Below, piece after piece: positions 56,652-56,950 of a DNA stretch of 64,000 bases. Origin of the DNA: an uncultured Actinomycetota bacterium (GTDB lineage: Bacteria; Actinomycetota; Actinomycetes; DATJPE01); NCBI GenBank assembly GCA_963819985.1, contig CAWFYH010000004.1, positions 466,713-530,712 of the forward strand. Direction: 5' to 3'. Position 1 is the stretch's first letter, and every line of letters begins with the position of its first letter. A model generated the notes under the pieces. That model saw nothing but the letters and a program-made list of their open reading frames with translations. It was not told the DNA's origin and searched no databases. The position numbers were made by a program, and so were the translations under genes.

Positions 56652-56684
56652 GAAGGGCGGTCCCCCATCGGGGGACCGCCCTTC
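56652..56684 (-). terminator. 15-bp-stem / 3-nt-loop GC hairpin followed (on the minus strand) by a T-containing tract; putative groEL terminator
   Basis: GAAGGGCGGTCCCCC-ATC-GGGGGACCGCCCTTC is a perfect inverted repeat located after the repeat array downstream of groEL. Confidence 0.55.
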
Positions 56685-56950
56685 TGGACTTCGTCGTCCT
56701 CACGCGCTCCGCGGCCAACCGCAAACCCCGCGGTCGTCCACTTCGCGCGCTCGTCCTAGAAGTCCAAACCTCCTGGACCTCGTCGTCCTCACGCGCTCCG
56801 CGGCCAACCGCAAACCCCGCGGTCGTCCACTTCGCGCGCTCGTCCTAGAAGTCCAAACCTCCTGGACCTCGTCGTCCTCACGCGCTCCGCGGCCAACCGC
56901 AAACCCCGCGGTCGTCCACTTCGCGCGCTCGTCCTAGAAGTCCATACCTC
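56684..56950. repeat. three tandem copies of an 89-bp unit (MIRU/VNTR-like); the third copy contains the groEL stop codon and last six codons
   Basis: Period exactly 89 bp (copies at 56684, 56773, 56862). Copies differ by 1-3 nt. Each copy retains a CTAGAAGTCCA stop-plus-DF pseudo-terminus. Confidence 0.9.

Follow-up and report, generated by a model that had tools for sequence, protein, structure and literature searches.

Tandem copies of the groEL2 3'-untranslated region in a clade of uncultured actinomycetes

Intrinsic terminators are G+C-rich hairpins with a U tract behind them, placed where a transcription unit ends; U-poor terminators are usual in actinobacteria, and the 'I-shaped' type belongs to them. 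Minisatellites (VNTR) consist of head-to-tail units of 10–100 bp whose copy number differs among relatives. The REP/BIME elements of enterobacteria, which stabilise mRNA 3'-ends, are imperfect palindromes of ~35 nt that stand in the 3'-flanks of genes, are transcribed and are found in hundreds of dispersed copies per genome. The MIRU-VNTR loci of the M. tuberculosis complex are intergenic head-to-tail arrays of 40–100-bp units; MIRUs have been described as dispersed, apparently mobile units with an internal ORF that is coupled to the flanking gene (PMC12548453).

The locus compared with these systems lies in a window (the whole stretch of DNA that was analysed, 64 kb) from an uncultured actinobacterium, and it is found at the 3'-end of groEL2, the gene of one of the most abundant and tightly regulated actinobacterial mRNAs; in M. 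tuberculosis the groEL2 transcript is among the most abundant of all (PMC3207917). The known control of groEL2 (CIRCE/HrcA) is exerted at the 5'-end; a constrained hairpin that starts within the last codons would be a candidate point of post-transcriptional control. The main interest of the array is what is repeated in it: a clade-specific, constrained and structured groEL2 3'-UTR element without known family. No report of such an element, or of similar duplications that re-copy a stop codon, was found in the literature searched.

The groEL2 locus and the 89-bp array

The groEL2-type chaperonin gene (56934..58562, minus strand; 542 aa, ATG start, TAG at 56934–56936, C-terminus ...GGMGGMDF; ORF list) encodes a protein with 81–91% aa identity to actinobacterial GroEL among the matches listed (83% to Mycobacterium GroEL), and the orthologues of its relatives carry PF00118 (Cpn60_TCP1). 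No groES was found upstream of it. The upstream neighbour is a cold-shock protein gene (CSD; 58883..59086, minus strand; 67 aa). Two CIRCE-like inverted repeats (58671..58725; GCACTC-N9-GAGTGC with one mismatch each, 34 bp apart) were located in the groEL 5'-leader; two were found where 0.43 were expected, a count that says little by itself, but the position is telling, and operators placed in this way fit an HrcA-regulated heat-shock gene. Downstream stands the gene of a secreted Calx-beta/bacterial Ig-like protein (54581..56503, minus strand; 640 aa; Pfam families).

Between groEL and the latter gene a single tandem array was detected at 56680–56951 (TRF: period 89, 3.1 copies, 98% matches, indels 0, score 523). 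The repeat search gave three copies in register (56680–56773, 56769–56862 and 56858–56951), each of 94 nt and 97–100% identical; a 48-nt piece of the unit was counted 3 times in the 64-kb window and 0 times in 100 shuffles. The initial annotation, made from the letters alone, had described three head-to-tail 89-bp units that re-copy the stop region of the upstream gene in intergenic DNA of an actinobacterium, and these units are real. The strand had to be corrected: groEL is on the minus strand, so that the groEL-proximal unit is the high-coordinate one and the hairpin that accompanies the array stands 3' of it.

Unit 1 (56863..56951, minus strand), the groEL-proximal original copy, comprises the last five groEL codons and TAG (GGAGGTATGGACTTCTAG; six codons had been given at the outset), followed by 71 nt of 3' UTR; covariance-model match 56860–56945, 102 bits. 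In the groEL sense it starts with GGA GGT ATG GAC TTC TAG. Unit 2 (56774..56862, minus strand), the internal copy, starts with the pseudo-terminus GGAGGTTTGGACTTCTAG, in which ATG is changed to TTG; model match 56771–56856, 100.5 bits. Unit 3 (56685..56773, minus strand), the terminator-proximal copy, has the same start (G-G-L-D-F-stop), keeps the ancestral GAAGTCC arm and runs at its end into the terminator stem; model match 56682–56767, 104.6 bits. The stop codon and degenerate GGLDF ending ascribed earlier to the two further units were accordingly recovered in both.

On the groEL side the duplication junction (56947..56951, minus strand; sequence reading) is GGAGG in the Gly-Gly codons, one half of a G(G/A)AGG microhomology; on the other side it is GAAGG (56680–56684) at the 5'-base of the terminator hairpin stem. 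The contexts of the microhomology are GGGAGG in the groEL Gly-Gly codons and CAGAAGGGCGG at the foot of the terminator stem. At the junctions themselves GTCCAGGAGG is followed by TTTGG in the window and GTCCAGAAGG by CATGG in the nearest relative (L082, see below). The period of 89 bp is not divisible by 3, and stops are present in 2/3 sense frames of the array. The array was also considered as a site of translational readthrough or as the carrier of a small ORF; both were rejected, no frame being conserved.

The terminator-type hairpin (56651..56685, minus strand) has a perfect G+C-rich stem of 16 bp (56651–56666/56670–56685), a 3-nt loop and the tail CGCAUUUGG; –36 kcal/mol. A perfect stem had been reported before, with a length of 15 bp in place of 16. 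The U tract of the tail is weak (only 3 U, UUU), and the consensus terminator scan gave no call. Compensatory changes on both sides, with pairing retained, were found at 7/16 stem pairs over six genomes, which supports the earlier proposal that the hairpin probably terminates groEL. A strong hairpin (–36 to –42 kcal/mol) follows the element in all clade members except the rearranged L084, and this conserved hairpin probably terminates groEL. Between the array and the next gene lie the hairpin and some 150 nt.

Other repeats and structured RNAs of the window were recorded as follows. At 23217–23591 (plus strand) a 124-aa ORF with a signal-peptide-like N-terminus contains about seven tandem HEDDSRH heptads (TRF: 21 bp × 7.5, 23389–23552) and ends where a sensor histidine-kinase-like ORF begins (23588–25024); its product could be a His/Asp-rich, metal-binding secreted peptide. 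The hexanucleotide AGACTC is repeated 11 times at 47462–47531, in the short gap or overlap of two minus-strand membrane-protein ORFs (47509–48165 and 46439–47422), the upstream one of which ends with ...AEAESESEV; this repeat could be a slippage-prone linker or mark a split gene. An imperfect repeat rich in AAG/GAA codons (18741–18821; periods 3 to 30) probably encodes a lysine- or glutamate-rich low-complexity segment. A c-di-AMP (ydaO/yuaA) riboswitch (15198–15417, minus strand; 54 bits) and a tRNA gene (3462–3534, plus strand; 63 bits) were the only Rfam families above the gathering threshold in the window.

Distribution and history of the unit

Relatives were searched for with the less conserved 640-aa Calx-beta/Ig-like neighbour as the query, and a graded series was obtained. 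It consists of six metagenomic contigs: L082 (neighbour protein 90% identical), L083 (57%), L084, L085, L086 and L088. The GroEL proteins of L082, L083 and L086 are 99.3%, 97.8% and 95.9% identical to that of the window; groEL of L082 differs from that of the window at 19% of four-fold sites, i.e., a different species is concerned. The gene order CSD – groEL – Calx-beta is kept in most clade members; CSD is not among the called genes in L088 and L084.

L082 carries an array as well (period 89, 3.0 copies, 95% matches), and its junction coincides in position with that of the window. In L083, L084, L085, L086 and L088 the sequence of the 89-bp unit is present as a single copy directly after the groEL stop, and the copy numbers over the clade (window, L082, then these five) are 3, 3, 1, 1, 1, 1 and 1. 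In L084 the downstream gene differs, yet the element stays with groEL. Because the relatives carry the same sequence once, right behind the stop codon, the unit is the native groEL2 3' UTR, duplicated in place in one sub-lineage, and not an insertion. With head-to-tail units between 10 and 100 bp and a copy number that differs among relatives, the array is a VNTR (minisatellite) in the generic sense. The cold-shock protein led to one further sequence of the same species and no more, a 1-kb Logan contig (L001; 99.9% identical to the window) that ends inside groEL before the array.

In two of the contigs groEL is split into several called ORFs (L085:3056–4686 and L088:3033–3947); assembly frameshift errors are the most likely cause, rather than pseudogenes, and single-base details there should be read with caution. 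In L084 (L084:100–150) an ABC-transporter gene stands directly after groEL and no terminator hairpin is present; behind the single element the groEL terminus is found twice more in degenerate form, as GGCATGGTCTTGTAGG and then as GCATGGACTTGTCG, and the latter pseudo-copy supplies the called ATG of the next gene.

The nearest outgroup (six JGI contigs; GroEL 93% identical) has only a plain terminator and gave no covariance-model match, and the element was absent from 78 other actinobacterial groEL loci. At least 80 groEL loci from GTDB species representatives (at most 91% aa identity among the matches listed) displayed neither homology to the unit nor a repeat that re-copies the stop. Locus L087 (P0006) had no groEL nearby. 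At the 90% level GroEL clusters combine Jiangella, Phycicoccus, Nocardioides, Sporichthyaceae and MAGs, so that cluster names carry no taxonomic information. The element is so far restricted to a narrow clade of uncultured actinomycetes. A general actinobacterial stem that spans the groEL stop was tried as a candidate and rejected: it is rarer at the stop (3/78 loci) than in a control region (7/78).

Copies of the unit at other sites, which the initial annotation had envisaged, were sought at several levels and none was found: 0 further copies in the 64-kb window; with covariance model R1 (built from alignment A2), matches in 1.01 Mb (window and 87 loci) at the groEL 3'-ends of the clade only, 80–106 bits; by BLAST with the unit against the window and all 88 loci, no locus besides groEL 3'-ends. 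Two 25-mers of the unit core, one of them clade-conserved, were absent from the JGI metagenome collection, and one was also absent from the GTDB representative genomes. The window, the 1.01 Mb of loci, the GTDB representatives and the JGI metagenomes thus yielded neither the related units at many loci that are proper to MIRUs nor the hundreds of dispersed copies per genome that are proper to REP/BIME. Of the MIRU architecture proposed at first, an intergenic tandem repeat over the upstream stop is retained; a dispersed family is not supported by the collections just named, nor are an insertion and an ORF coupled to flanking genes, the unit being a native UTR of period 89, with stops in two of the three sense frames and with a terminator and the gap of ~150 nt before the next gene. 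As regards the imperfect palindrome in the 3'-flank of a gene that characterises REP/BIME, both palindrome and position were seen here, in a flank that is presumably transcribed.

Alignment column 85 reads G, G, A over the three copies in both the window and L082; among the single-copy relatives it is A in L084, L085 and L086 and C in L083 (which is without the H1 3'-arm, see below). Because the internal copies differ from the terminal copy alike in both genomes, one origin before the split of the window organism and L082 is favoured. Columns 6 (T,T,T vs C,C,C) and 66 (G,G,G vs T,T,T) are genome-specific in all three copies; therefore either concerted evolution, by gene conversion or unequal exchange, or repeated rounds in which the array contracted and expanded again must be invoked. 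The terminal copy of L082 is decayed in its 3'-half (12–16 differences); the core helix H3 is intact in all six array copies, as it is in the five single-copy genomes. Judged from these alignments, the array is old enough to be common to two species and yet bears the mark of continuing exchange, a shared origin being combined with concerted evolution. A turnover of the copy number is therefore probable, and populations may plausibly be polymorphic for it. Independent amplification in the two lineages, the junctions of which differ by one base, keeps a small residual probability.

Tandem repeats of another kind were found between element and terminator in two sister lineages: 20 bp × 3.7 in L086 (L086:4756–4831) and 21 bp × 3.9 in L088 (L088:4020–4110), the unit of the latter, GGCATGCTTCTAAGCCAGCCAG, resembling the groEL terminus GGCATGGACTTCTGAG. 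These unrelated short repeats suggest that the groEL UTR is generally slippage-prone. In L088, units one and two are each capable of folding into a small hairpin, and the change AGAAG/CTTCT -> AGAG/CTCT seen there looks compensatory.

Structure and constraint of the unit

Each unit is predicted to fold into a three-helix rod of ~85 nt. Helix H1 is formed by UGGACUUC, from the last groEL codons, and the downstream arm GAAGUCCA; in the species with a TGA stop (L085, L086 and L088) it is predicted to extend through the stop codon, 10–15 bp in all. L083 has lost the 3'-arm, and H1 is therefore dispensable there. H2 is a short middle helix (predicted). The core helix H3 (unit 1, 56889..56919, minus strand; GUGGACGACCGCG-GGGUU-UGCGGUUGGCCGC; alignments A1 and A2, consensus structure; –18.3 kcal/mol alone) spans 31 nt that recur at 56800–56830 and 56711–56741. 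No other part of the element is so well conserved across the clade as this stem-loop of 12–13 bp, the consensus of which is GUGGACGACCGCG-loop-UGCGGUYGGCCGC.

When the sequence of each species is folded by itself, the rod architecture is the minimum-free-energy structure every time; under a pairing-span limit of 100 nt the array of the window gives three consecutive rods, then the terminator. In all nine sequences the sense strand is more stable than the antisense strand, by 3.5–20.7 kcal/mol, as expected if G-U pairs matter, i.e., if the structure is one of RNA on the groEL transcript. In alignment A2, 95% of cells form standard pairs vs 30–45% when the partners are slid by 1–3 columns. Two rod pairs change on both sides (CG -> UA and AU -> GC; compensatory changes in L086); this covariation is thin, since the seven genomes are closely related, and probably reflects no more than one or two events. 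Sequence conservation makes up much of the rod signal, and a role at the DNA level or in protein binding could explain it too. The Rfam search of 56300–57300 gave only sub-threshold hairpin look-alikes, and at the gathering threshold no family in the whole window matched the element.

Constraint was assessed against four-fold degenerate sites of groEL. Window vs L083: 4/55 nt after the stop differ vs 92/304 four-fold sites of groEL (Fisher p = 2e-4); in the last 60 codons 11/32 four-fold sites differ (p = 0.002 vs 4/55), in the last 12 codons 5/6; the spacer beyond the terminator is not alignable. The core of the element thus evolves about four times slower than the four-fold sites and, since it forms a conserved island between diverged flanks, purifying selection is indicated rather than a recombination tract. 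Window vs L082: core 1/55 vs 2/31 four-fold sites in the adjacent groEL end (last 60 codons), a pair that alone shows no constraint. Window vs L086: 14/52 vs 99/293, not significant. As far as the sequences go, the comparison implies a constrained RNA element without an Rfam family.

Four-fold differences per 90-codon block of groEL (window 56934–58562 vs L082:3930–5558) are 2/49, 12/50, 6/48, 13/51, 17/56 and 7/51. Such uneven divergence suggests mosaic recombination within the gene; the similar groEL end of the two genomes hints at a recombination tract, which weakens the case for stable inheritance of the three copies.

Explanations of the array and comparison with known systems

With moderate confidence the array is read as an in-place triplication of a constrained, structured groEL2 3' UTR, which begins with the last five codons, reaches the foot of the terminator and would act in cis. 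In the common ancestor of the window organism and L082, slipped-strand or unequal exchange between GGAGG (groEL Gly codons) and GAAGG (base of the terminator stem) would have duplicated the 89-bp segment, and the number of copies would then have risen to three; since that time the copies may have been kept alike by repeated gene conversion or unequal exchange. The groEL2 transcript would end in three consecutive rods and the terminator hairpin (predicted structure). From what is generally known of 3' stem-loops, the element would most likely act in cis on the very abundant groEL2 mRNA, where it could block 3'-to-5' decay or serve as a site of processing or protein binding; terminating ribosomes would be expected to open H1, and the extra copies would multiply the same structure, with an effect that is probably neutral or mildly advantageous. 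It is considered rather unlikely that the rod is an undescribed cis-acting RNA element of groEL2, in which H1 would hide the last codons and the stop until ribosomes open it, chaperonin translation would thereby be coupled to 3'-end stability or processing, and the triplication, retained in two species, would be adaptive tuning.

The main alternative on the side of neutrality supposes a 3' UTR that is functionless beyond termination, its conservation due to recent recombination or low local mutation and its array an inconsequential minisatellite formed by slippage. The similarly low divergence of the adjacent groEL end in the pair window–L082 (2/31), the mosaic divergence along groEL (between 2/49 and 17/56 in a block), the short repeats of unrelated sequence that L086 and L088 have in this UTR and the decay of the L082 terminal copy in its 3'-half are all in its favour; it nevertheless appears doubtful, because in the comparison with L083 the core is conserved (4/55) between flanks that have diverged, because H3 is intact in every array copy and single-copy genome, with compensatory changes in L086, and because the sense strand folds better in 9/9 sequences. 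Another explanation is that processing of the groEL2 transcript yields the element as the body of an sRNA derived from the 3' UTR, or as a recognition site for a specific protein or RNase, with regulation in trans tied to heat shock and a dosage raised by the triplication. Small RNAs of this origin usually lie just upstream of a strong terminator, which is where the element stands; its host gene is highly expressed, and in H3 and its flanks (GAGCGAAGUGGAC and GGCCGCGUAGCG) conservation concerns the sequence and not just the pairing. Since most of the conserved bases are paired and leave no evident single-stranded conserved seed, and since neither an Rfam match nor a wide distribution was found, this explanation is judged unlikely, and more clearly so than the neutral one.

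To regard the unit as a member of a dispersed and possibly mobile family of intergenic repeats at gene ends, hypervariable among strains and of use in typing, would account for an actinobacterial tandem repeat that overlaps the upstream stop codon, for copy numbers of 3 vs 1 across the clade and for a homogenisation within genomes that implies ongoing unequal exchange. It is nonetheless quite improbable: no second locus was found in the collections searched, the unit is the native groEL 3' UTR in the single-copy relatives, no coupling ORF of the kind described for MIRUs (PMC12548453) is seen in a unit of 89 bp with a terminator before the next gene, and the second species, L082, has an equal copy number. 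Least credible of all, and very improbable indeed, is an assembly artefact, or a trace left by an integrated element that used the groEL 3'-end as attachment site and so duplicated it. The sequences come from metagenome assemblies, several of which contain evident errors (the groEL fragments in L085 and L088), and integrases that target the 3'-ends of genes leave direct repeats of the gene end; the groEL of the window is intact, however, and both forms of the proposal were rejected, the artefact because two independent, diverged contigs share the 3 × 89-bp structure and the att-site remnant because the copies adjoin one another with no foreign DNA in between, and each base of the unit has its match in the native UTR of the single-copy relatives.

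In the preferred reading, the in-place triplication of a structured 3' UTR, the series from one to three copies and the repeats of the sister lineages offer a natural example of a structured 3' UTR that expands by microhomology duplication and then undergoes concerted evolution. It also illustrates why the re-copying of a stop codon does not by itself make a repeat a mobile element of the MIRU type. The locus would be of use in typing only if strain-level polymorphism were shown.

Among the known systems, intrinsic terminators, the 'I-shaped', U-poor actinobacterial ones included, resemble the G+C-rich 16-bp hairpin after the array, the structure of which is kept with compensatory changes; they differ in that the U tract here is weak and the repeated rods, upstream of the terminator, form a structure of their own. 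REP/BIME share the position of imperfect palindromes after a gene and before its terminator as well as the capacity for tandem clusters, and they offer the best functional analogy, a proposed stem-loop barrier to 3'-to-5' decay; the element here is longer (~85 nt), clade-specific and found at a single locus, and its outer helix includes the end of the coding sequence. MIRU and MIRU-VNTR resemble the array in unit length, head-to-tail order, intergenic position in an actinobacterium, contact with the stop codon of the upstream gene and a copy number that differs between relatives. Unlike them, the array belongs to no dispersed or mobile family in the collections searched, has as its unit the gene's own 3' UTR copied in place, contains no in-phase ORF coupled to neighbours and is found in a host that is no mycobacterium. 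With an ordinary minisatellite or VNTR that arises from microhomology-mediated duplication it has in common the near-identical head-to-tail copies, a 4–5-nt G(G/A)AGG junction and the signs of concerted evolution; it differs from one in that the duplicated segment is itself a constrained structured element and in that the same array is present in two species.
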